From assembly GCA_054600435.1 (NCBI GenBank), contig BAAIJX010000009.1, forward strand, positions 62,001-126,000: a stretch of DNA of 64,000 nt, in the 5' to 3' direction. Position 1 is the stretch's first letter. Every line of letters begins with the position of its first letter. Below the pieces are notes generated by a model. It did no database searches. It was not told the DNA's origin and worked only from the letters and a program-made list of their open reading frames with translations. The position numbers were made by a program, and so were the translations under genes. Of this stretch, positions 19,732 to 53,701 are shown piece by piece. This DNA is from Neophaeotheca triangularis (lineage: Eukaryota).

Positions 19732-19943
19732 GATCCCATTCGGCAAAGAGTGTGGGTCGACTAGTAGTGCTCCCTGCGGGCAACGAACGTCTTCCCCTGC
19801 TCCTGCCAATGGTTGCTTATCACAAATTTCCCAAGAGGAGAGATCCCATTCGGCACAGGGTCTGGCTAGTAGTGCTCCTCGTGGGCAACGAAAGTCTTTC
19901 CCTAGTCCTGCCAATGGTTGCTTGTTACATATTTCAAAAGGAG
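19732..19943. repeat. Imperfect direct tandem duplication, period 110 bp
   Basis: GATCCCATTCGGCA...CTAGTAGTGCTCC...GGGCAACGAA...TCCTGCCAATGGTTGCTT occurs from 19732 and again from 19842. Confidence 0.85.
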
Positions 19944-37309: not shown

Positions 37310-38153
37310 GTAATAACTAGCCCTAGCATAAGAGGCCTCTTTGTATATCGATAATACTAGCGCTACATCTACTAAGTAATACGGTTACGCCGCGTAGTAA
37401 CAATAGGACTCTTATAAGCACTAGAGGGCCGTCTAGTATAGCTATCTTCGTCGGTTTTAGGCGTTAGGGGTAGTACCTCCTTATATGCTAGTTAGCTATA
37501 CGAGTTTATAAAGTTATAAAGGCCGTAGAGCGTATATACTAGTATTACCTATACCTTAATCAAATACCCTTACCTAGGGCTATATTTTAAGATCTTAAAA
37601 CGAGCCTTAAGTACACTAAACACCCTCTTAACGATGTTCCGGAGCTACGTATAGCGTAGGTTAAATAGCTCCTCTAGAGTCTCTAGTTTTACTTACGACT
37701 TATACTACTCCTTAAGGTAATACCGCGTCTTTAAGTAGGGTATTAAGAGCGTCTTATCCGTAGCCGTATACCCTATATCTACGAGCTAGTATACCCTCTT
37801 AGGGGTCTTAAACCCCTTTACCTTAGCTATATTTAGCACTATACTGTTATTCGTAGAGCCCTCCTACCCTAGTAAGACATATATAAAGTTTATATCGAAA
37901 TCTACTACTACTAGCACGTTCTACGATATAAACCCCTTCCGGTTACGCTAGGGCCCTTATATATTAGCTAGTATTATAGTAGGAATATACGAGCTATTAA
38001 GAGCACTAATATACCCTCTAAAGAATAGCTAGACCTTCTTATTACTATAGATCTATAGCGGAGTAGTAGCGGTTATAGGTAGTAGAGTCTTTACCTTATA
38101 CCGCTATACGAGAGCAAGTAATACTACCTTAATAAACCTATAGAGACTAGTAG
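37310..38153 (-). pseudogene. Harbinger (DDE_Tnp_4/HARBI1-like) transposase, catalytic C-terminal part, RIP-degraded
   Basis: Reads GYISALNSSYIP (GCIGALDGSHIP-like), *RNRKGFIS*NVL, YVLLG*EGS, LVDIGY, LFNLRY..LRNIVKRVFSVLKARFKIL, IT**M*R*Y; end coordinate approximate. Confidence 0.88.
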
Positions 38154-38376
38154 TGTCACGACCGCGGCGCTAGCGGGACATCGGCGGCCCTAGCTATAGA
38201 GCAGCTTAGGAGTGCTAAGCGTACATACTACGAAAGTATATAAGATAGCTAATAGTGAAGTCTCCTGTCTACTATCGAATAGTTTCTATATTAAAGGACT
38301 ATTACTATTATTACCATTATTACGCTCCGCCCTCGCTCCGCCGTAATCCTAACCGAGTTATAGTCTCGGTCTTACA
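38154..38376 (+). repeat. 5' LTR of copy A (223 bp)
   Basis: TGTCACG...CTTACA; TATATAAG at 38237; four homologous copies in the window. Confidence 0.95.
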
Positions 38377-38425
38377 ATTCTATTCGATCTTAGAACCTTT
38401 TTAGGTTAAGATTCGCTCGGACATC

Positions 38426-41400
38426 ATAGCACTATCGCGCTCGCTACGCCCTTAGGTCGACGACGCTAACCTAGTAGACTCCCCTAACACTATAACCGGA
38501 GTCAACACCCTATAAGAATAAGAAGAGGCGGCGACGGACCAATACACGGTCCTTACTACCGCTATTGCGGAACTCCGACAGCAATTAGTAGAGCGCATAG
38601 CGCCTATTTAGCGAGCTACCGATAGAGCGATAGTCCCCCGCGACGAGTCCGAAAGAGGACATATCGAACCGGAGGACCTAGTAGATATTACCCCTACCCT
38701 AATAGCACGTAAGTAGATAGTAGACGAAGATCTACCTACCGGCGTAACGATAAAGGAGCGAAAGTCTTACATCGATGTCGAGAAAGCTTTTCGCTCGGCC
38801 GAACTAACGGTTTATAGGAGTTATCCTAACCTCCCGAAAGCATAGATGTTTATCTAGTAATGCGAGCGTGTGTTTAAGACGCACCCTTATGTTTACTTTT
38901 ATTAGTACGAGCGTGTCTAGTATACCGCAGGCCGCCTATATAGCCGCGTCGGCTAGAACTAGGAGAGTAAAGAATCATGACTCGAACGCGAAGAGATGAA
39001 ATGGCCTATGTTTAAAGAATAGCTACTAGATTAGATCCTCGACCCCGAAAACCGCGCTATGAATATAGCGTTCCGAGGTTTTAGACATGTTTAGGGAGCG
39101 ACCTAATCTATTTACGACTACCTCTCGTATGTCGAAGACTCCCTCCGCGAGGCCGATATCGCCCTACTACTAGAGTATATACTCCTTACCCTCGTTAAGA
39201 CGGGGCTATAGGAAAATCTTAAGGCTAAGCTAAATGCTTAGCTAACGGTGCTAGACAACCGGCATAACCTCGTCGCGCTTTACACGTATCTCGACGATAC
39301 TAGTCGCGGCGGCTAGGACGCTAGAGGCGAGACGGCAGACAGGCTACGTAAGACTAACTTAAGAGGTTTCGGCTATAAGAAAAGAGAACAAAACTAGAGC
39401 ATAAGCGATAACAACTCTAAACCGCGCTACTAGCGTACTAATAGAACACCGGCGACCGGTATAAACTACATAGGTACGACCTACGGTAGCGAACGAAACA
39501 ATAAAGCCCTCGAAGAAAACCTTTGTTTTAAGTACGGCAATAAAGGCCACTAGCAAGAAAATTGCTAAAAGGGAAAAGCTTAGCTCTAGGTCATTTAATT
39601 ATTAGCCTTAAGGGCTTAGGGTAGTAAGTAGGCAGTACGTTAACAGAGCGCCTATAGGCTATCGTAAAGATATACGATCGTACCTGCGATAGGCTACGCT
39701 TCGAGGCCCGCGGGCTTATCGACACGGGAGCGCATTATAATGTCATCTTAGAAGACATCGCAGTCTAGTATAACCTACTAATAAAGGGTAACCGGATTCG
39801 TAGGCTATAGGCCTTTAGTAACGTCGAAGCCCTAATAGTAAGCCGATATCGACTCTATACTAAAGTCGCTAATTTAGACAGTATAGTCTAAACCATCCTA
39901 TAGATGTTCGAAGTAGTAAACTAGAAGGATTACGAAATGATTCTTAGAATACCTTAGATCCGATCTACGAAAGTATAGCTTAACTTCGCGTCGCCGCTAG
40001 TATAGTGGCGCTACGGCGGCGTATATAATAAAGAAGAAGTCGAAATTATCGAGGCCGAAGAACTAGCCCGAGATATTGATAGTAGAGCATCTACCCTCGC
40101 TATTAGCGTAGAAGACCTATGTAGGACCCTAGTAGAGCTACGGGTACCCGAGTAGTTAGCAGAATATGCCGAGGTATTTAAATCGGAGAAGGCGAAAGAG
40201 TTACCTCTACATACACTTTACGACTACTATGTCGAACTAGTCGAGGGAAAAAACCCTCCTAGTAGACCGATCTATCTATGTTCCGAGCTAGAGCTCGAAG
40301 AAATGTAGTCGTAGATTAATAACCTACTCGTAATAGACCGTATTAAGCCTAGCACTAGCCCCGCCGGCGTACCGTTACTATTCGTTAAGAAGAAAAACGG
40401 CAAACTTCGTATATACGTCGATTACCGCAGCTTAAACGAAATCACTATTAAGAACAAGTACCCTTTACCGCTTATTAGTGAACTCTTAGATAGAGTCCGC
40501 GGGTTAACGTGGTTTTCGAAAATCGATTTAGTCGAGGCATACTACCGTTTACGCGTTGCCTAAGGCGACGAGTAGAAGACGGCGTTCCGCTATTAGTACG
40601 GCCATTTCTAATATAAGGTTATGCCTTTCGGACTCGCTAATATACTAGCGTCGTTTTAGGCCTTTATTAATAAGGTGCTCATAGAGCTAGTTAACCACTA
40701 CTACGTAGTATACATAGATAACGTTCTCATCTATTCCCGCACTAAAGCAGAACACCGCGAACATATTCGAGCGGTCTACTGTTAGCTCGCTAATGCTAAG
40801 CTATATACTAGTCTTAAGAAATGCGAGTTCATAGTCCGAGAGATTAGATTCCTCGGTTTCGTTATCAACTCTACTAGAGTAGCGATAGAGCCCCTACGGG
40901 TAGCTATAGTACAAGATTAGCTAATGCTAAAGTCCTTAAAAGAACTCTAAGTATTCCTAGGATTCGCGAATTTCTATTATCGCTTCATCGAGGGATATAT
41001 AAAGATTACTACTCCCCTTACGGACCGCCTATAGTATAGTAGCGGTAAATGGTAGATACTAGGTAAAGATACCTAAAAATCCTTTAAAAGGTTAAAGCAT
41101 AGCTTTATTTTAGCACTAGTGCTATAGCACTTTAACGCTATGCTAGAGACCTACCTTAAGACCGATACATTAGGATACACATTAGGAGGTATACTCGCGT
41201 AGAAGCACTTAGACACGCTATAGCATCTAGTCGCATATTACTCTAAGAAGCTTAAAGGGCCGGAGTTGCGATATCTAGTGCACGATTAGGAACTACTCGC
41301 TATCGTCGAGGCGATGCGCTAATAGTAGTACTACATATTGTCGGCTAAGAGCAAAGTTTAGGTACTTATAGATCACAATAGTCTAAAGTACTTCCTATCG

Positions 41401-43476
41401 ATAAAGAAATTGTTAGGCCGCTAAGCGCGCGCCGCGGAAGAGCTATCGCAATACGACATCGAGATCACATACTGTAAAGGTAAATCAAACCCTAGAGTAG
41501 ACGGGCTCTCGCGCCGTCCTAATATAGAGGCTAATAGACAATTAAGTAGGGCGGAAATACTACCTATACTAACTAGGCTTTTCGCTCCCCTAGCGGGCCC
41601 CTATAAGGCCGCCGAAATTCCGGCGAGTAGCCGCACGATAGCCGCTAAAGATAGAGTAGAGATCCTATCTATGTCGCTAAGGTACGTAGCGCTAGTAAAC
41701 TACTAGGCGTTAGCCGCCTCGCTAGTAGGCTACACGATAGCTACTAGAGATACTAGTCCTCTAAACAATAAGCTTTAGAGTAATGATACTATACACACTA
41801 AGCGAACGCTCTAAGGGGGAGGTAAACTAAACCTGACTAGCTCTATCGCTATAGTAGCGCCGACCTATTATAACCCTATAGGTAAGTAGCTAGGTATACT
41901 CGCTATTACCGAGCTAGACATTAGAGAGCCTAATATAGCGGTAGACTAAATCGACCTTAGAGCGGATATATTACGTATATAGTAGGGAGACCCCTTTACT
42001 AAACACATTTATAAAGAGATCGACGAGGGACAGTACTATAGAGACGCTAACGGCGCCGCGCCTATATAGTCGGTTAGTTTTACAGGACTTCTTAAGATTA
42101 ATAGAAAGGTGTATATGCTGCTAGTAGAAAGCCTATAGGCTACCGTGCTAAGCTACTACTACGAGGACCTATTAGTAGGACACCTAGGAGTAGGGAAGAC
42201 TAAAGCCGTTTTCTATAAGGAGTTTTAGTAGTCTAAGTAGACTAAGGATGTCGAAGAGTATATCCTTAGGTATAACACCTGCTAAAGACATAAGTCGCGC
42301 CGCTACCGGCCCTACGGCGCATTATAATTGCTAAGGGTTCTAGGTGCTAATAAGATCTTCTAGCATTAGTCTATAGACATAGTGGTTAAGTTGCCTGTCG
42401 TAGAGATATATAAGGGTGAAATAGTCGATTCTATATTAGTTATTGTTAACTGCTTCTTAAAGTTCGCGAGGTATATCCCTATTAGCGAAGCGATAGGGGC
42501 CCGCTAGCTAGCCGATATTTTCGAGCACGAAGTTCTTATAAAGTTTAGTAAGCCGAAATCGATTATAACTAATAGAGGTAGTATATTTACCTCTACATTT
42601 TAGATAGAGCTCCTTCGGTATTAGAAAACCGAGCGCAAGTTATCGACGGTATACTACCCTTAGTCCGACAGGTAGACGGAGAGGCAAAACCAAACAATAG
42701 AATAGTATCTACGATGTTTTGTTAACTTTGCATAAATAGATTAGCCTTATTACCTCGTATAGGCTAAATTCGCCTACAATAATAGCGTAAGCGCGTTAAC
42801 GAAAGTGTCGCCGTTCTTTACTATCTATAGGGCGGAGCCCTAACGGCCTAGCGGCGTTACGGATAATGCCGTCGGAGAGGGAGGTAGCGAACCGACAATC
42901 CCCGACCTCTAAGAAAGAACCGAAAACTAGAAAGCAATTCGCGAGGTTATCGAGGATAACATTCGGCACGCTATCGGCAAGTAGGCAGAATACCACGACC
43001 GAAAACACGATCCTATAGTATTTAGTGTTAATAACAAGGTTCTTATTTCCGCGAAAAACCTGAAAACGTTAAGACTAACTAAAAAGTACTCCTCGCATTA
43101 TGTAGGGCCCTTTCGAGTTATAGTAAGGGTTAGAAAACAAGTATACTAATTAGCCCTACCTCTATACCTTAGAAAGATCTATAACGTCTTCTACGTCTCC
43201 CTCCTCGAACCGTACTACTAACGCGCCGACTTCGTACTACCGGTAGAGCGAGAAGTCGACGGAGGTAATGAATAGGTTATCGATGAAATAACGGCATCCG
43301 GTCTTGACGATAACGGTAACAAGACGTACTATATTCTTTAGAGAGATTAGCCGATAGAAGAGGGAACCTAGGAGAAAGAGAAGCATCTAAATAACGCGAA
43401 AGAAGCGATCGTAGACTTCGAGTAACACTAGCGGACCTACGGTAGCGCGAAAAAGAAGCGTAGAAAGAAAACATAA
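38426..43476 (+). pseudogene. gag-pol of copy A, many RIP stop codons
   Basis: Zn knuckle LCFKYGNKGH*QENC, protease LIDTGA, RT (FVKKKNGKLR.YVDYR.LN, MPFGL, YIDN for YIDD), RNase H, integrase, GPF motif, chromodomain. Confidence 0.92.
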
Positions 43477-43595
43477 AGCCCGAAGAAAAAGAATGTCGAG
43501 AATACATAGCTAGGGAAAAAGAAGAAAACTGCAGGAAAAGGACATAGTACACAAGCTTCTTAATTAATAGCTACTACGGACGGGCTAGCGACGGG

Positions 43596-43818
43596 TATTA
43601 CGACCGTAGCGCTAGTAGGACATCGGCGGCCTAAGCTACGGAGCAGCTCGGGAGTACTAAGCGCATATACTACGAAAGTATATAAGATAGCTAACAGTAA
43701 AGTCTCCTGTCTACTATCGAATAGTTTCTATATTAAAGGACTGTTACTATTATTACTATTATTACGCTCCGCCCTCGCTCCGCCGTAATCCTAACCGAGT
43801 TATAGTCTCGGTCTTATA
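43596..43818 (+). repeat. 5' LTR of copy B
   Basis: TATTACG...CTTATA, RIP version of TGTCACG...CTTACA, 223 bp. Confidence 0.93.
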
Positions 43819-43867
43819 ATTCTATTCGATCTTAGAACCTTTTTAGGTTAAGATTCGCTCGGGCATC

Positions 43868-46800
43868 ATAGCACTATTACGCTCGCTACGCCCTCGGGTC
43901 GACGACGCTAACCTAGCGGACTCCCCTAACACTATAACCAGAGTTAATACCCTATAAGAATAAGAAGAGGCGGCGACAGACTAATACACGGTCCTTACTA
44001 CCGCTATTACGGAACTCCGATAGCAATTAGTAGAGCGTATAGCGCCTATTTAGCGAGCCGCTAATAGAGCGACGGTCCCCCGCGACAAGTCCGAAAGAGG
44101 ACATATCGAACCGGAGGACCCGGCGGACATTACCCCTACCCTAGTAGTATATAAGTAGACGGTAGACGAAGATCTACCCACTAGCGTAACGATAAAGGAG
44201 CGAAAGTCTTATATCGATATCGAGAAAGCTTTTCGCTCGGCCGAACTAACGGTTTATAGGAGTTATCCTAACCTCCCGAAAGTATAGACGTTCATCTAGT
44301 AATACGAGCGTATGTTTAAGACGTACCCTTATATTTACTTTTATTAGTACGAGCGTGTCTAGTATGCTACGGGCCGCCTATACGGCCGCGTCGGCTAGAA
44401 CTAGGAGAGTAAAGAATCACGACTCGAACGCGAAGAGATGAAATAGCCTATATTTAAAGAATAGCTACTAGATTAGATCCTCGACCCCGAAAACCGCGCT
44501 ATAAATATAGCGTTCCGAGGTTTTAGACACGTTTAGGGAGCGACCTAATCTATTTACGACTACCTCTCGTATATCGAAGACTCCCTCCGCGAGGCCGACG
44601 TCGCCCTACTACTAGAGCATATACTCCTTACCCTCGTTAAGACAGGTCTATAGGAAAATCTTAAGGCTAAGCTAAATGCTTAGCCGACGGTACTAGACAA
44701 CCGGTATAACCTCGTCGCGCTTTACACGCGCCTCGACGATGCTAGCCGCGGCGGCTAGGACGCTAGAGGCGAGACGGCGGACAGGCTATACAAGACCGAC
44801 TTAAGAGGTTTCGGCTACAAGAAAAGAGAACAAAACCAGAGTATAAGCGATAACAACTCTAAACCGCGCCGCTAGCGCACTAATAGAACACTAGCGACTA
44901 GTATAAACCGCATAGGTATAACCTATAGTAGCGAACGAAACAATAAAGCCCTCGAAGAAAACCTTTATTTTAAGTGCGGCAACAAAGGCTACTAGTAAGA
45001 AAATTGCCGAAAGGGAAAAGCTTAGCCCTAGGTCATTTAATTATTAGCCTTAAGGGCTTAGGGCGGTAAGTAGGCGGTACGTTAATAGAGCGCCTATAGG
45101 CTATCGTAAAGATATACGATCGTACCCGCGATAGGCTACGCTTTAAGGCCCGCGGGCTTATCGATACGGGAGCGCATTACAATGTTATCTCGGAAGACAT
45201 CGCAGTCCGGTATAACCTACTAATAAAGGGTGACCGGATTCGTAGGCTACGGGCCTTTAGCGACGTCGAAGCCCTAATAGTAAGCCGATGTCGACTCTAT
45301 ACTAAAGTCGCTAATTCAGATAGTATGGTTCAAACTATCCCGTAGATGTTCGAAGTAGTAAACTAGAAGGATTACGAAATGATTCTTAGAATGCCTTAGA
45401 TCCGATCCGCGAAAGCATAGCTTAACTTCGCATCGCCACTAGTGTAGTAGCGCTACGGCGGCATATATAATAAAGAAGAAGTCGAAATTATCGAGGCCGA
45501 AGAACTAGCCCGAGATATTAACAGTAAAGCATCTATCCTCGCCGTTAGCGTAGAAGACCTACGCGGGACCCCGGTAGAGCTATAGGTGCCTAAGTAGTTA
45601 GCGGAATACGCTAAGGTGTTTAAATCGGAGAAGGCGAAAGAGTTACCTCTACATACACTTCATAACCACTATATCGAACTAGTCGAGGGAAAAAACCCTC
45701 CTAGTAGACCGATCTATCTATATTCCGAGCTAGAGCTCGAAGAAATATAGTCGCAGATTAATAACCTACTCGTAACGGACCGCATTAAGCCTAGCACTAG
45801 CCCTACCGGTACACCGTTACTATTCGTTAAGAAGAAAAACGGCAAACTTCGTATATGCGTCGATTACTGCAGCTTAAACGAAATCACTATTAAGAATAAG
45901 CACCCTTTACCGCTTATTAGTAAACTCTTAGACAGAGTCCGCGGATTAACGTGGTCTTCGAAAATCGATTTAGTCGAGGCATACTACTATTTACGCATCG
46001 CCCGGGGCGACAAGTAGAAGACGGCGTTCTACTATCGGTATAGCCATTTTCAATATAAGGTTATGCCTTTCGGACTCGCTAATATATTAGCATCGTTTTA
46101 GGCCTTTATTAATAAGGTGCTTATAGAGCTTATTAACCACTACTACGTAGTATACATAGATAATGTTCTCATCTATTCCCGTATAGAAGTAGAACACTAC
46201 GAACACGTTCGAGCGGTCTGCCGTCGGCTCGCCGACGCTAAGCTATATACTAGCCTCGAGAAATACGAGTTCATAGTCCGAGAAATTAGATTCCTCGGTT
46301 TCGTTATTAACTCTACCGGAGTAGCGATAGAGCCCCTACGGATAGCCGTAGTATAAGATTAGCTAATACTAAAGTCCTTAAAAGAACTCTAAGTGTTCCT
46401 AGGATTCGCGAATTTCTATCGTCGCTTTATCGAGGGATATATAAAGATTACTACTCCCCTTACGGACTGCCTACGGTATAGCGGTAGTAAATAGCAGCTA
46501 CTAGGTAAAGATGCCTAAAAATCCTTTAAAAGGTTAAAGTATAGCTTCATTTCAGCACTAGTGCTACGGCACTTTAACGCTACGCTAGAGACCCGCCTTA
46601 AGACCGATATATTAGGATACGTATTAGGAGGCATACTCGCGTAGAAGCACTCGGACACGCTATAGCATCTAGTTATATATTACTCTAAGAAGCTTAAAGG
46701 GCTAGAGTTACGATATCTAGTGCACGATTAGGAACTACTCGCTATCGTCGAGGCGACGCGCTAATGGCGGCACTACATATTGTCGGCTAAGAGCAAAGTT

Positions 46801-48918
46801 TAGGTGCTTATAGATCACAATAATCTAAAGTACTTCCTATCGACAAAGAAATTGTTAGGCCGCTAAGCGCGCGCTACGGAAGAGCTGTCGTAATACGACA
46901 TCGAGATCACATACTATAAAGGTAAATTAAACCCCGGAGCAGACGGGCTCTCGCGCCGTCCTAATATAGAGGCTAATAGACAATTAAGTAGGGCGGAAAT
47001 ACTACCTATACTAACTAGGCTTTTCGCTCCCCTAGCGGGCCCCTATAAGGCCGCTAAAGTTCCGGCGAGTAGCCGCACGATAGCCGCCGAAGATAGAGTA
47101 GAGATCCTGTCTATATCGCCGGGGTATGTAGCGCCGGTAAACTACTAGGCGTTAGCCGCCTCGCCGGCGGGCTATACGATAGCTACCGGAGACACCGGTC
47201 CTCTAAACAATAAGCTTTAGAGTAATGATACTATATACACTAAGCGAACGCTCTAAGGGGGAGGTAAACTAAACCCGACTAGCTCTGTCGCTATAGTAGC
47301 GCCGACCTATTATAACCCCGTAGGTAAGTAGCTAGGTATACTCGCTATTACCGAGCTAGACATTAGAGAGCCTAACGTAGTAGTAGACCGAATCGACCTT
47401 AGAGCGGATATGTTGCGTATATAGTAGGGAGACCCCTTTACTAAACGCATTCGTAAAGAGATCGACGAGGGATAGTACCGCGGAGACGCTAACGGCGCCG
47501 CGCCTACGTGGTCGGTTAGTTTTATAGGACTTCTTAAGATTAATAGAAAGGTATATATACCGCTAGTAGAAAGCCTACGGGCCGCCGTGCTAAGCTACTA
47601 CTACGAGGACCTATTAGTAGGACACCTAGGAGTAGGGAAGACTAAAGCCGTTTTCTACAAGGAGTTTTAGTAGTCTAAGTAGACTAAGGATGTCGAAGAG
47701 TATACTCTTAGGTATAACACCTGCTAAAGACATAAGTCGCGCCGCTACTAGCCCTACGGCGCATTGTAATCGCTAAGGGTTCTGGGTGCTAATAAGATCT
47801 TCTAGTATTAGTCTATAGACATAGTAGTTAAGTTGCCTATCGTAGAGACATATAAGGGTAAAATAGTCGATTCTGTATTAGTTATTATTAACCGCTTCTT
47901 AAAGTTCGCGAGGTATATCCCTATTAGTGAAGCGATAGGGGCCTACTAGCTAGCCGATATTTTCGAGCACGAAATTCTTATAAAGTTTAGTAAGCTGAAA
48001 TCGATTGTAACTAATAGAGGCAGTATATTCACCTCTACGTTTTAGACGGAGCTCCTTCGGTATTAGAAAACCGAGCGCAAGTTATCGACAGCATACTACC
48101 CTTAGTCTAATAGGTAGACGGAGAGGTAAAACCAAATAATAGAATAGTATCTACGATGTTTTATTAACTTTGTATAAACAGATTAGCCTTATTACCTCGT
48201 ATAGGCTGAATTCGCCCACAATAACAGCATAAACACATCGACAAAAGTATCGCCGTTCTTTACTATCTATAGGGCGGAGCCTTAACGGCCCGGTAGTGTT
48301 ACGGATAACGCCGTTAGAGAGGGAGGCAGCGAACCGACAATCCCCGACCTCTAAGAAAGAACCGAAAACTAGAAAGCAATTTGCGAGGTCGTTAAGGACA
48401 ACATTCGGCACGCCGTTAGCAAGTAGGCGGAATACTACGACCGAAAACACGATCCTATAGTATTTAGTGTCGATGACGAGGTTCTTATTTCCGCGAAAAA
48501 CCTGAAAACATTAAGACTAACTAAAAAGTACTCCTCGCGTTATATAGGGCCCTTTCGAGTTATAGTAAGGGTCGGAAAACAAGCATACTGATTAGCCCTA
48601 CCTCTATACCTTAGAAAGATCTATAACGTCTTCTACGTCTCTCTCCTCGAGCCGTACTACTAACGCGCCGACTTCGAACTACTAGCGGAGCGAGAAGTCG
48701 ATAGAGGCGGCGAATAGGTTGTCGACGAAATAACGGCATCTAGTCTCGACGACGACGGCGATAAGATATACTAGGTTCTTTAGAAAGATTAGCTAATAGA
48801 AGAGGGTACCTAGGAGAAAGAGAAGCATCTAAACAACGCGAAAGAAGCGATAGTAGACTTCGAGTAACACTAGTAGACCTATAGCGGCGCGAAGAAGAAA
48901 TAAGGGAAGAAAGCATAA
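43868..48918 (+). pseudogene. gag-pol of copy B, many RIP stop codons
   Basis: Colinear with copy A at a constant 5442-bp offset; RT fragment visible in ORF 46117-46356 (YVVYIDNVLIYS...FLGFVI). Confidence 0.92.
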
Positions 48919-49080
48919 AGGCTAGAGAAAGAGAGTGCCGAGAATACATAGGCAGGACAAAAGAAGAAAACTGCAGGAAAAGGACGTAGTACATAAGCTT
49001 CTTAATCAATAGCTACTACGGACGGGCTAGCGACGGGACAACGGCGCTTATAGAGAGTACGCAATTAATCAAATAAACGC

Positions 49081-50412
49081 TTAAGCCCTAGTGTCTAACT
49101 CCTTCGCAACCTTAGTAATATTAGCCTATAGCTAATCTTTGGCACTAGTAGACTTCTCCGTATTCTCCCCTACCGACAGAGCGGCGTCGTCCCTATAGCG
49201 TATCCTAAGAAAACCTAAGAGACTAGAAGGCTTCTTTAGAGCCTTATCCTCCTTATTATCCGACTCCGACGAAGAAGAAGACACCTCTAGCGGCGTACTA
49301 GCGTCGTCCCTACTACTCTTCCGAACTAGACCCTTAGTATCTATCGCTAGTACCTTTAGAGCTACTACTAGCGCCGGCGCATTAACGGTCTTATCGTAAG
49401 GCGGCGACTTACTAAGACTAGGCGTATCGCGTACCGGCGAAGAAGAAGGCGCGGCGCGACGGCGGCTAGACATCTCATTAATAAGCACGGACATTTCTAT
49501 ATAGTAGACGGCGACAAGTCTCTCGACAGTATTAGTGACGATCGTAGCGAAGTCGCGAGTTTAATCTGTGATTAGGCGTGCTATATCGTGCGGAGTCAAG
49601 ATCTTATCGTTATTAGGACCGGAACGACGAAGGCCCCCCGTTAGGATAACGGCGCGGTTGTTCTTATAGAAGTACTAGGAGACCTTAGCGTCGACTTCTA
49701 AGACCTTAAGGTGTATTAGCGAATCGGCGTCGGAACTACCGGTACGGTTAGCGCGATAGAGTATAGCCGTATGGTTTATCTAGACACGGTAGAGGCGCTA
49801 GCTAGCGAGGTTAGGAATAATCTGAAGAAACGTTAGTGAAAACTCGTAACGATAACAGAGCTATAGTAGGCTTACCTCGATACACGATTGCTTCGCGTTA
49901 AAGTAGGTGTTATATACTAATCCGGTTGCGGAAGGCACTATCTTACATAGCGGGATAAAGTCGATAGACCTATCGAGAACGTTACTTAAGAGCTCCTTAA
50001 TATAGCGCGAACAACAAGGGCGATTAACATCGATAGGAGTAAGCTCCTTACCCTTATTAATGTCGGCGAAGCGACGGAACGCCGGCATATCCTTATTAGA
50101 CCTACTCTCCTCACTATCATTACCCTTAGCACGCTTACGTTTCGAGCCCGTACCCTTAACGGCCGTAGCGCGCTTCGTACTAACACCCTCCGACTTTAAA
50201 CCCTTCTTAGTAGACTTCGACTCGTTAACCAAATCCTTTAACTCCTCCTCTATAAAGCTGCTAGCGGCGATCCGATAGCGGCCCTTAGTTATAAAGACTC
50301 CCTTAGCGATAATCGCCCTATCTATAGTAAAGGCACCCTTACTATTAACGGCTATAGCGCTAACGCTATAGTCGACTAGCGCCTTCGGACGCTTACTAAT
50401 ATGCGGAGGCAT
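49081..50412 (-). pseudogene. Antisense, spliced extra gene of copy B (426 codons; exons 50412-49876, 49821-49081), Cys-cluster protein of unknown function
   Basis: ORFs 49861-50412 and 49132-49494 are in one frame across a GTAAGC...CTAAC...CAG intron (49875-49822); internal stops are RIP-type TAG/TAA. Confidence 0.8.
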
Positions 50413-51127
50413 AATAGAACGGCGGCGGAGTAATAAAGGCAGTGAATAAAGCTAGCGAAAAAGGGCGATAGCGAGATCGCGAAAAAAGTAGTCGATAAAG
50501 AAGGGAAGAAGGTATTAGAGGTACGAGGAGCGCCTTTTTGTTAAACCGCGCTAGGTAAGGTTTTCGAAAGGTCATTAGAAGCAGGTAACAATAGGAAACT
50601 AGGTGAGGTTAGTTTTATTGTTAAAGAACAATAGGAACCGTATATAGACTAATAGTGGCGCGCAAACAAAGAACTAAAGTTTACTTACCGATAAAGAAGG
50701 TCACCTTATTAAAAGGCAGACTAGTATGCCGAAGGGACTATGACGGAGTAGAAGCTATTATTATTATTATAGTTAAAAGGAGGAAGTCTTCGAAAGAGAA
50801 GTAACCGGTAGGTCACCTCTACGTAATTATAGCGTAATCACGCTAAGGCTCTACTAGTAATTACCGCTCCGCTAGATCACTACTACGTAGCCGTTAATAC
50901 CGCTTATCGCGACGATAACGCACCTTGCCGTAGCGAACTCAGGTTTAGGGTGAATTTACTCTAGGGACCCGATAGTATAATAGCGGTATATAGTATTACT
51001 CTTTTCCTTAGTAAAGACACTACCGAGGTTTTTAACGAGGATGCTAAAGTCCGCGCTATGACGGGGTCTCGCATAACTATACTTATAAGTGCTAGCTCGA
51101 GGACGAGCTACTAGAGAGGGAGGCAAT

Positions 51128-51350
51128 TATCACGACCGCGGCGCTAGTAAGACATTAGCGGCCTAAGCTGCGGAGTAGCTCGGGAGTGCTAAGCGCACAT
51201 ACTACGAAAGTATATAAGATGGCTAATAGTGAAGTCTCCTATCTACCATTGAATAGTTTCTATATTAAAGGACTATTACTGTTATTACCATTATTACGCT
51301 CCGCCCTCGCTCTACCGTGATCCTGACCGAGTTATAGTCTCGGTCTTACA
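51128..51350 (+). repeat. 3' LTR of copy B
   Basis: Preceded by PPT AGAGAGGGAGGCAAT; ends CTTACA; 223 bp. Confidence 0.94.
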
Positions 51351-51398
51351 ATAGGACAACGGCGCTTATAGAGAGTGCGTAAATGATTAGACAAACGC

Positions 51399-52757
51399 TT
51401 AAGCCCTAGTGTCTAACTCCTTCGTAACATTAGCAATATTAGCCTATAGCTAATCTTCGGCACTAATAGACTTCTCCGTATTCTCTCCTGCCGACGGAGC
51501 GTTATCGTTCCTACTACTTATCTAAAACAAACCCTTAACCTCCGTCACACGCCTAGGAGCCACTACCGGTACCGCGGGAGCCTCGTCCTCCTAATCCGAC
51601 TCTAATAAAGAAGAATAATCCTCGTTAGAAGACACCTCTAGTAGTATACCGGCGTCGTCCCTACTACTCCTCCGAACCGGAGCCCTAGACATCGACATTA
51701 GCGCCTTAAGGGCCTCTACTAGTACACCGACGGTCTTATCGCAAGGCAGCGACACACTAACACTAGGAGTCGCGCGTAGCGGCGAAGAAGAAGACGCGGC
51801 GCGACGGCGGCTAGACATCTCGTTAATAAGTATAGACATTTCCGTACGGTAGATAGCGACAAGCCTCTCGACGGTAGCGGTAACGATCGTAGCGAAGTCG
51901 CGAGTTTGATCCGTAATTAGGCATGCCATGTCGTGCGGAGTCAAGATCTTATCGTTATTAGGACCGGAACGACGAAGGCCCCCTATTAGGATAATGGCGC
52001 GGTTATTCTTATAGAAGTACTAGGAGACCTTAGCGTTAACTTCTAAGACCTTAAGGTATATTAGCGAACCGGCGCTACTACTACTAGCGCGATTAGCATA
52101 ATAGAGTATAGCGGCATGGTTTATCTAGACATAGTAGCTACACTAGCTCGCGAGGTTAGGAACGATCTAAAAAGGCATTAGTAAGAACTCGTAACGACGA
52201 CGGAGTAATAGCAGGCTTACCTCGAGGTAGGACTGCTTTACATCCTAATAGGTGTTGTATACCGATCCGGTCGCGGAAGACACTATCTAGTATAGCGGGA
52301 CGAAGTCGACGGACCTAGCGAGAATGTTACTTAAGAGCTCCTTAATGTAACGCGAATAACGAGGGCGATTAACGTTAGGAGGATCGAGCTCTATACCCTT
52401 ATCGATGTTAGCGAGACGACGGAATACCGGTATATCCTCCTCGGAACCACTCTCCTCCCTATTATCACCTATAGCACGCTTACGTTTCGAGCCCGTACCC
52501 TTAGCGGCCGTAGTGCGCTTCGTACCGACACCCTCCGACTTTAAACCCTTCTTAGTAGACTTCGACTCGTCGACTAGATCCTTTAACTCCTCTTCCGTGA
52601 AGCTACTAGCGTCGATCCGATAGTAGCCCTTAGTTATAAAGACTCCCTTAGCGACAATCGCCCTATCTATAGTAAAGGTACCCTTACTATTAACGGCTAT
52701 AGCGCTAACGCTATAGTCGACTAGCGCCTTCGCACGCTTACTAACACGTAGAGGCAT
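51399..52757 (-). pseudogene. Antisense, spliced extra gene of copy A (435 codons; exons 52757-52221, 52166-51399)
   Basis: Homologue of 49081-50412; same 54-nt intron GTAAGC...CTAAT...TAG (52220-52167); ORFs 52287-52778 and 51591-51944 are its remnants. Confidence 0.8.
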
Positions 52758-53473
52758 AATAGAACGGCGGTAGAGCAATAAAGGTAGTAAATAAAGCTAG
52801 CGAAAAAAAGGCGATAGCGAGATCGCGAAAAAAGTGGTCGATAAAGAAGGGAAGAAGGTATTAGAGGTACGAGGAGCGCCTTTTTGTTAAACCGCGCTAG
52901 GTAAGGTTTTCGAAAAGTTACTAGAAGCAGGTAACAATAGGAAACTAGGTGAGGTTAGTTTTATTGTTAAAGAACAATAGGAACCGTATACGGACTAATA
53001 GTGGCGCGTATATAAAGAACTGAAGTTTACTTACTAATAAAGAAGGTCACCTTGTTAAAAGGCAGACTAGCGCGCTAAAGGGACTACGATAGAGTAAAGG
53101 CTGTTATTGTTATTGTGGTTAGAAGGAGGAAGTCTTCGAAAGAGAAGCGGCCGGTAGGTCACCTCCGCGTAATTATAGCGTAATCACGCTAAGGCTCCGC
53201 TAGTAATTACCGCTCCGCTAGATCACTACTATATAGCTGTTAATACCGCTTATCGCGACGATAATGCACCTCGCTATAGCAAACTTAGGTTTGAGGTGAA
53301 TCTACTCTAGGGACCTAATAGTGCGACAGCGCTATACGGTATTACTCTTTTCCTTAGTAGAGACACTACCGAGGTTTTTAACGAGGATACTAACATATAC
53401 GCTATACCGGGGTCTCGCATAACTATGCTTATAAGTACTAGCTCGAGGACGAGCTACCGGAGAGGGAGGCAAT

Positions 53474-53696
53474 TGTCATAACCGCGGCGCTAGTAGGACA
53501 TCGGCGGCCCTAGCTATAGAGCAGCTTAGGAGTACTAAGCGCATATACTACGAAAGTATATAAGATAGCTAATAGTAAAGTCTCCTATCTACTATCGAAT
53601 AGTTTCTATATTAAAGGACTATTACTATTATTACTATTATTACGCTCCGCCCTCGCTCCGCTATAATCCTGACTAAGTTATAGTCTTAGTCTTATA
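53474..53696 (+). repeat. 3' LTR of copy A
   Basis: TGTCATA...CTTATA, 223 bp, followed by AGTAG TSD. Confidence 0.94.
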
Positions 53697-53701
53697 AGTA
53701 G

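Follow-up and report, generated by a model that had tools for sequence, protein, structure and literature searches.

An antisense open reading frame between pol and the 3' long terminal repeat of a fungal Ty3/Gypsy retrotransposon is probably an accessory gene

Introduction

Antisense genes of retroviruses include HBZ and ASP. Accessory genes of long terminal repeat (LTR) retrotransposons are poorly understood, and we know of no antisense one with a known function. Here, we analyze a 64,000-nt stretch of the Neophaeotheca triangularis genome (contig BAAIJX010000009.1 of assembly GCA_054600435.1, positions 62,001 to 126,000 of the forward strand), from now on referred to as the window, to which all positions below refer. 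The window contains two copies of a Ty3/Gypsy retrotransposon, element A and element B, which carry a long open reading frame (ORF) on the strand opposite gag and pol, located between pol and the 3' LTR.

In fungi, an antisense gene of this kind has been described as brtn, an additional gene of Boty-like Ty3/Gypsy elements in Botrytis cinerea and Sclerotinia (Zhao et al. 2011, Virology 417:248, as related in passages of PMC8365987, PMC7264820 and PMC4227169). The pol gene of Boty carries a chromodomain according to a passage of PMC4227169, and Boty is grouped with elements having an antisense ORF between pol and the 3' LTR in the relevant section of PMC7264820. A BRTN-like transcript is mentioned for Monilinia in an extract of PMC5987419, and further additional ORFs are remarked on in BcGypsy families in part of PMC8365987. 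The fungal antisense ORFs that appear in the excerpts of this literature are limited to the Boty/brtn line and the BcGypsy remark (PMC8365987). The original prediction for this locus had assumed that fungal chromoviruses encode gag and pol only, which is incomplete given that brtn in the chromodomain-bearing Boty was published in 2011, as far as the passages of PMC8365987, PMC7264820 and PMC4227169 describe it.

Antisense ORFs between pol and the 3' LTR are also found in plants, specifically, in maize Grande, rice RIRE2 and Silene Retand, the latter with TRP28 (excerpts of PMC7264820 and PMC11963269). These sections of the two sources report them in most copies of a family and suggest that their products are nuclear or DNA-binding and regulatory (PMC7264820, PMC11963269). 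The antisense genes of human and simian T-lymphotropic viruses (HTLV and STLV) are named there as retroviral parallels (part of PMC11963269). The layout itself is therefore not new, as antisense genes at this position are on record for both fungal Boty (brtn) and plant elements. Our analysis indicates that the 2.2-kb interval of the N. triangularis elements probably holds a genuine accessory gene, encoded on the opposite strand and convergent with pol, in a layout like that of brtn, Grande, RIRE2 and Retand.

Results

The probable end of pol in element B (~48867) and its 3' LTR (51128) are separated by ~2.2 kb. In both copies, this interval contains the long minus-strand frame that had been predicted, with 426 codons in B and 435 codons in A and at the positions expected (Table 1). 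The frame is interrupted by internal stops, 5 in B and 8 in A, on which the original prediction was silent; every one of them is TAA or TAG and can be attributed to repeat-induced point mutation (RIP). A chance open frame in AT-rich, RIP-mutated DNA that does not represent a gene would be in keeping with the lack of a homologue, a fold and a selection signal described below. However, the five other frames hold 18-64 stops per ~430 codons in the same TA-rich DNA, compared with the 5 and 8 of the antisense frame. RIP was reversed using the two copies by taking the un-mutated base of A or B at each site, which left 4 stops in the antisense frame versus 14-52 in the other frames. At these 4 remaining stops, Gln is found in P0004, a protein of 283 residues predicted from a Logan contig and open for all 283 codons. 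Two fragments from a single 4151-nt contig, P0005 (residues 1-156) and P0006 (residues 278-389), cover further parts of the protein, with P0006 open across residues 278-389. In all 5 sequences, which represent at least 4 copies, the frame is open or its interruptions are explained by RIP, which makes a chance frame barely credible. The former existence of an ancestral ORF of ~430 codons is well supported by this comparison. As specified in the aORF-3R definition of PMC7264820, the ORF is located antisense to gag-pol and between pol and the 3' LTR.

Both elements are embedded in a low-GC block at 34-56 kb of the window, with a GC content of 39-47% versus ~54% around it. Within the block, TA/AT is 1.9-2.1 and (CA+TG)/(AC+GT) is 0.32-0.35, versus 0.69-0.77 and 1.14-1.17, respectively, in the flanks. 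When A and B were compared, one copy was found mutated at 230 of 380 CpA sites and 447 of 1416 CpG sites, as well as at 42 of 1154 CpT and 39 of 828 CpC sites. RIP at this locus thus acts in the CpA and CpG contexts, with CpT and CpC reaching just 4-5%. Elements A and B are both dead as a result of RIP.

The arrangement of the two copies was deduced from self-BLAST and from the junctions. Self-BLAST identified four copies of a 223-bp LTR, starting at 38154, 43596, 51128 and 53474, together with two copies each of a 5.4-kb unit (91% identical) and a 2.3-kb unit (84% identical). A complete copy, element B (43596-51350), is nested in element A (38154-43595 and 51356-53696). B is flanked by a target duplication, ACGGG (43591-43595) and ATAGG (51351-51355), the two sides being two RIP-type transitions apart, and its uninterrupted target site can be read in B itself at 49033-49037. 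The target duplication of A is AGTAG on both sides (38149-38153 and 53697-53701). A tandem array of the form LTR-gagpol-LTR-gagpol-X-LTR-X-LTR was considered and rejected, because the inner target duplication indicates a simple nested insertion. The order of components is the same in both copies: LTR, gag, pol, ~2.2 kb, polypurine tract (GAGAGGGAGG) and LTR. The LTRs have the ends TGTCAC..TTACA which, together with the 5-bp duplication, agree with the TG..CA ends and 5-bp target duplications of Ty3/Gypsy elements. In A, pol and the antisense ORF converge, and B is inserted between their 3' ends. Heterochromatin targeting by a chromodomain integrase would fit such a self-insertion.

The antisense ORF is found beyond the window in association with the same element. 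Contigs ~8% diverged from the window, originating from two other studies, span the pol-to-ORF junction at 49036, one of them from an air metagenome (X3 record 22, 48663-49273) and one carrying a second organism label (X4 record 27, 48876-49128). The junction contig of X2, an air metagenome, is almost identical to the window, nested junction included, and adds nothing independent. The 1968 contigs of X1 cover all 30 bins, gag-pol and ORF alike, and their differences from the window are nearly all transitions among the matches listed. The ORF was thus seen in both window copies, in the bridging contigs of 2 further studies and in the 4151-nt contig, and A and B each consist of LTR, gag-pol, ORF, polypurine tract and LTR with their own 5-bp target duplication. 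The proposal that the antisense third gene belongs to the element is borne out by the two copies and by the diverged junction-spanning contigs. The available sequences fall into an A-like subtype (A, P0005 and P0006) and a B-like subtype (B and P0004). In both subtypes, the ORF is a constant component of the element in the sequences compared.

Pfam analysis of A and B detected RVT_1 (E 9e-24 and 7e-29), RT_RNaseH, Integrase_H2C2 and SH3_Tf2-1, in that order and in a single plus-strand frame. This corresponds to the reverse transcriptase, RNase H, integrase order of Ty3/Gypsy pol in both copies. A gag with a CCHC-like knuckle, recognized by eye, occupies a frame offset from that of pol by one base to the right in both A and B (in B, 43823-45250 versus 43822 onward), so judged by eye pol would be read after a -1 shift. 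The probable end of pol at ~48867 is the first stop past a chromodomain-like stretch and is common to A and B. This C-terminal stretch was likewise identified by eye and shows stops where Trp would be expected. The family is likely to be a chromovirus.

A and B are independent insertions, and transversions between them, taken from a MAFFT alignment, were used as non-RIP differences. The ORF carries 52 transversions in 1272 nt, compared with 12 in 5214 nt of gag-pol and 5 in 715 nt of the non-coding stretch at 50413-51127 (Fisher p 2e-26 and 4e-6, respectively). The ORF therefore accumulates transversions at 18 times the rate of gag-pol, and these cluster in two parts of the protein, residues 93-225 and the tail starting at residue 326. 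This fast evolution is the sole mildly surprising feature of the ORF. Within the interval, conservation is higher in the stretch at 50413-51127, which may contain cis-acting signals.

An alternative to an accessory gene is a passenger, that is, an ORF captured or arisen once that has no role for the element and is open only by recent descent. The high transversion rate, the ratio of non-synonymous to synonymous transversions reported below and the lack of both a predicted fold and a homologue outside the family in the libraries searched all agree with a passenger. On the other hand, 0 frameshifts and 0 non-RIP stops were found in 5 sequences, even though the two subtypes are 4% apart in transversions and differ by a net 27 nt (9 codons), with the shared C-terminus in the same frame. 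MAFFT places 4 indels of 6, 15, 6 and 12 nt in the ORF, all multiples of three, the alignment of the tail being uncertain. Further, synonymous transversions are more frequent in the ORF (6 at ~236 sites) than in neutral proxies (9 at ~1387 sites, p 0.014). This excess hints that the two ORF subtypes may predate the remainder of the elements, with recombination perhaps having brought them together, yet the ORFs stayed open. A passenger thus seems unlikely.

Several observations weigh against an accessory gene. Transversions in the ORF are evenly distributed over the three codon positions (16/20/16). They comprise 46 non-synonymous and 6 synonymous changes at an expected ratio of 4.42, giving an omega of ~1.7 (one-sided p 0.13). 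The comparison of A and B consequently shows no sign of purifying selection, with omega not different from 1. The calmer blocks of the protein (residues 1-92 and 226-325) contain 5 transversions in 576 nt, all of them non-synonymous and at approximately the rate of the neutral proxies, and a passenger in decay would be expected to give a similar picture. The encoded protein is an orphan in the libraries searched, all copies seen are RIP-mutated, and Pfam Chromo gave no match at E<=5 in the last 212 codons of pol in either copy. The aORF-3R definition further includes a level of conservation comparable to the remaining proteins of the element; this was not seen for the ORF, given its transversion rate and an omega of ~1.7 compared with 0.37 for pol. 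It had been set out beforehand that a dN/dS of about 1 combined with frameshifts would speak against a gene; for the RIP-mutated copies to which this comparison is confined, the first of these was seen and the second was not. Overall, the evolution of the ORF fits a fast-evolving accessory protein and fits an unbroken passenger too, albeit less well.

Searches with the antisense protein yielded family members only. The search for homologous proteins gave 1 match among 7999 scored candidates and the search for shorter proteins 2 among 716, all three being copies of the family itself on Logan contigs. A HMMER profile (A1) run against 1.84 billion representative proteins returned nothing beyond the family's own two short fragments. 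None of the 5 sequences matched a Pfam family at E<=10, in a search whose power is lowered by RIP damage. Among PDB sequences, just 2 chains were reported (eS21, E 0.47-0.5) and judged to be noise, and the ESM Atlas gave no usable match. In JGI metagenomes, 186 stretches fit the protein patterns, 0 of them relatives, and a DNA pattern tolerant of purine and pyrimidine exchanges gave 0 matches. The AlphaFold2 model, based on a 5-row alignment, is unusable (mean pLDDT 28.3, pTM 0.19). The predicted KRKRAK patch is present at residues 91-96 and is basic in all 4 copies covering it. Before RIP, the protein would have contained many Arg codons.

The original prediction had interpreted a Cys/Tyr pattern in the protein of B as a six-Cys zinc cluster and the ORF as a spliced gene for a Zn2Cys6-like DNA-binding regulator whose Cys codons were converted to Tyr by RIP. 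The pattern, C134-S-R-Y137-x18-C156-x10-Y167-N-T-Y170-x6-C177, is present in full in B only. The G-to-A logic behind the conversion is valid, TGY to TAY being a RIP-type change at the preferred CpA on the other strand. Canonical Zn2Cys6 clusters (PF00172) have the spacing C-x2-C-x6-C-x5-12-C-x2-C-x6-8-C. Residues 134, 156 and 177 are Cys in B, residue 156 is Cys in P0005 too, and the second half of the B pattern would read C-x2-C-x6-C if Y167 and Y170 had been Cys. However, the first loop is x18 instead of x6, and Tyr occupies residues 137, 167 and 170 in all copies that cover them (4, 3 and 3 copies, respectively), so that 3 of the 6 Cys are hypothetical. Residues 134 (A, P0004 and P0005), 156 (A and P0004) and 177 (A and P0004) are Tyr in the copies given in brackets. 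Immediately before the pattern, residue 133 is Cys in B and Arg in 3 of 4 copies (A, P0004 and P0005), and this Cys is thus demonstrably derived from Arg. Residues 93-179 belong to the parts that vary most from A to B, with 13 transversions, and the Zn_clus profile (PF00172) had no match at E<=10 in the 5 sequences, a test weakened by RIP damage.

Since RIP acts here at CpG as well as at CpA, Arg codons can be converted to Cys and further to Tyr (CGY to TGY to TAY). Under RIP, Arg CGY codons in the two elements (38154-53696) decay to Cys, His and Tyr. Such Arg/Cys/Tyr series are seen between A and B at 9 codons (45, 133, 186, 187, 206, 209, 220, 279 and 304), and in the five-sequence alignment Arg also occurs in 10 of the 28 columns holding Cys or Tyr. 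Because of these series and columns, the Cys residues of B may themselves be RIP products, and half-mutated Arg codons are at least as likely a source for them as ancestral Cys. The six-Cys pattern is most likely a product of RIP, with no zinc cluster. Of the earlier interpretation, the pattern in B and the route from Cys to Tyr therefore remain, whereas the zinc cluster does not.

The second part of the same interpretation, a conserved 54-nt intron, fares similarly. GTAAGC, CTAAC and CAG are found at typical fungal distances in B, and signals are also present in the counterpart in A (52220..52167), with CTAAC or CTAAT and CAG or TAG as 3' signals across copies. However, 54 nt is a multiple of three, the stretch is in the ORF frame and open, and P0004 reads through it without a stop, so that it is indistinguishable from a run of 18 normal codons. 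The signals are also not above chance. CTAAY occurs 79-85 times per strand in the 15.5 kb of RIP-mutated DNA versus 25-30 times in 34 kb of DNA free of RIP. A GTAAGY with CTAAY and YAG downstream of it, spaced as in introns, was found at 12 of 20 sites in the RIP-mutated block versus 1 of 26 in the 34 kb. On the sense strand, 7 of 11 GTAAGY sites show the intron-like pattern, all of them within gag-pol where no intron is expected. The motif is frequent because RIP floods the DNA with TA, and there is no excess over chance. That an antisense intron can survive retrotransposition is sound as a general point, but its application here is a guess; an intron is unproven and the read-through frame leans against it. 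Taken together, a spliced gene for a Zn2Cys6-like regulator is highly improbable.

Table 1 Coordinates of features of the nested elements A and B in the window
Feature	Position	Strand	Remarks
5' LTR of A	38154..38376	+	223 bp
gag and pol of A, RIP-degraded	38379..43595	+	ends at nested-insertion site
5' LTR of B	43596..43818	+	from self-BLAST and junctions
gag and pol of B	43821..48867	+	Pfam domains as in A
Antisense ORF of B (P0003)	49135..50412	-	426 codons, 5 RIP-type stops; terminal stop 49132-49134
Intron-like stretch of B (GTAAGC..CTAAC..CAG)	49822..49875	-	54 nt, in frame
Cys/Tyr pattern read as zinc cluster	49882..50016	-	residues 133-177
KRKRAK basic patch, candidate nuclear localization signal	50125..50142	-	residues 91-96; basic in all 4 copies covering it
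Non-coding stretch of B, antisense ATG to polypurine tract	50413..51107	-	few A/B transversions
Polypurine tract of B (GAGAGGGAGG)	51108..51127	+	adjoins 3' LTR; counterpart in A at 53454-53473
3' LTR of B	51128..51350	+	followed by ATAGG 51351-51355
Antisense ORF of A (P0002)	51453..52757	-	435 codons, 8 RIP-type stops
3' LTR of A	53474..53696	+	from self-BLAST and junctions

A RIP-degraded remnant of a PIF/Harbinger-type transposase (DDE_Tnp_4, Pfam E 4e-11) is located on the minus strand at ~37578-37941, adjoining the left side of A. Because this remnant adjoins the retrotransposon, the block is a small transposon graveyard. Elsewhere in the window, self-BLAST detected two neighboring ~109-nt copies, 81% identical, at 19732-19943 in a gene region of normal GC content.

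Discussion

If the antisense ORF is a genuine accessory gene, its transcription would be driven either by a promoter of its own, within the ~700 bp that separate the ATG from the polypurine tract, or by the 3' LTR. The stretch at 50413..51107 would then be a candidate for both the antisense promoter and the 3' untranslated region of the sense RNA. The product would be a basic protein of roughly 47 kDa, as estimated from 426 codons, which is probably nuclear, judging by the KRKRAK patch and the many pre-RIP Arg codons, and probably largely disordered. The antisense gene appears to evolve much faster than gag-pol. Our best guess is that the protein acts on the expression of the element itself or on host silencing.

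More specifically, the ORF could encode an Arg-rich nuclear regulator engaged in an arms race with host silencing. Such a role is a speculative and quite improbable proposal, but it would explain why no part of the element evolves faster than the ORF (omega at least 1, 18 times the gag-pol rate), why its frame was kept in two subtypes and why detectable relatives are absent. If true, fungi would have in this protein an equivalent of the antisense and accessory proteins that complex retroviruses encode. The unusually fast evolution in itself makes the ORF a candidate for host-element conflict. With dead copies and an orphan protein, the window itself gives no functional handle. A more general lesson concerns RIP-mutated DNA, in which Arg codons give rise to Cys/Tyr patterns and TA enrichment produces intron-like signals; unless un-RIPed copies are at hand, neither should be interpreted as a motif.

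Compared with known systems, the locus resembles brtn in being an extra gene of a fungal Ty3/Gypsy element, antisense to gag-pol and between pol and the 3' LTR, a likeness of layout. The setting differs from that of brtn in that the host has a GC content of ~54% in genes and that RIP is heavy. The antisense ORFs of Grande, RIRE2 and Retand have the same position and the same orientation as the ORF described here. However, these plant lineages are non-chromoviruses, and their ORFs are reported, in the sections of the literature cited above, to match the other proteins of their elements approximately in conservation, whereas the N. triangularis ORF evolves far faster than gag-pol. TRP28 (PF04195) of Retand had no Pfam match at E<=10 in the ORF proteins. 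The antisense genes of retroviruses are similarly encoded on the strand opposite gag-pol near the 3' LTR; they are driven by the 3' LTR and have no sequence relation to the ORF. As a second fungal example, unrelated in sequence to the first as far as visible, the N. triangularis ORF would suggest that a gene at this position has been favored repeatedly.

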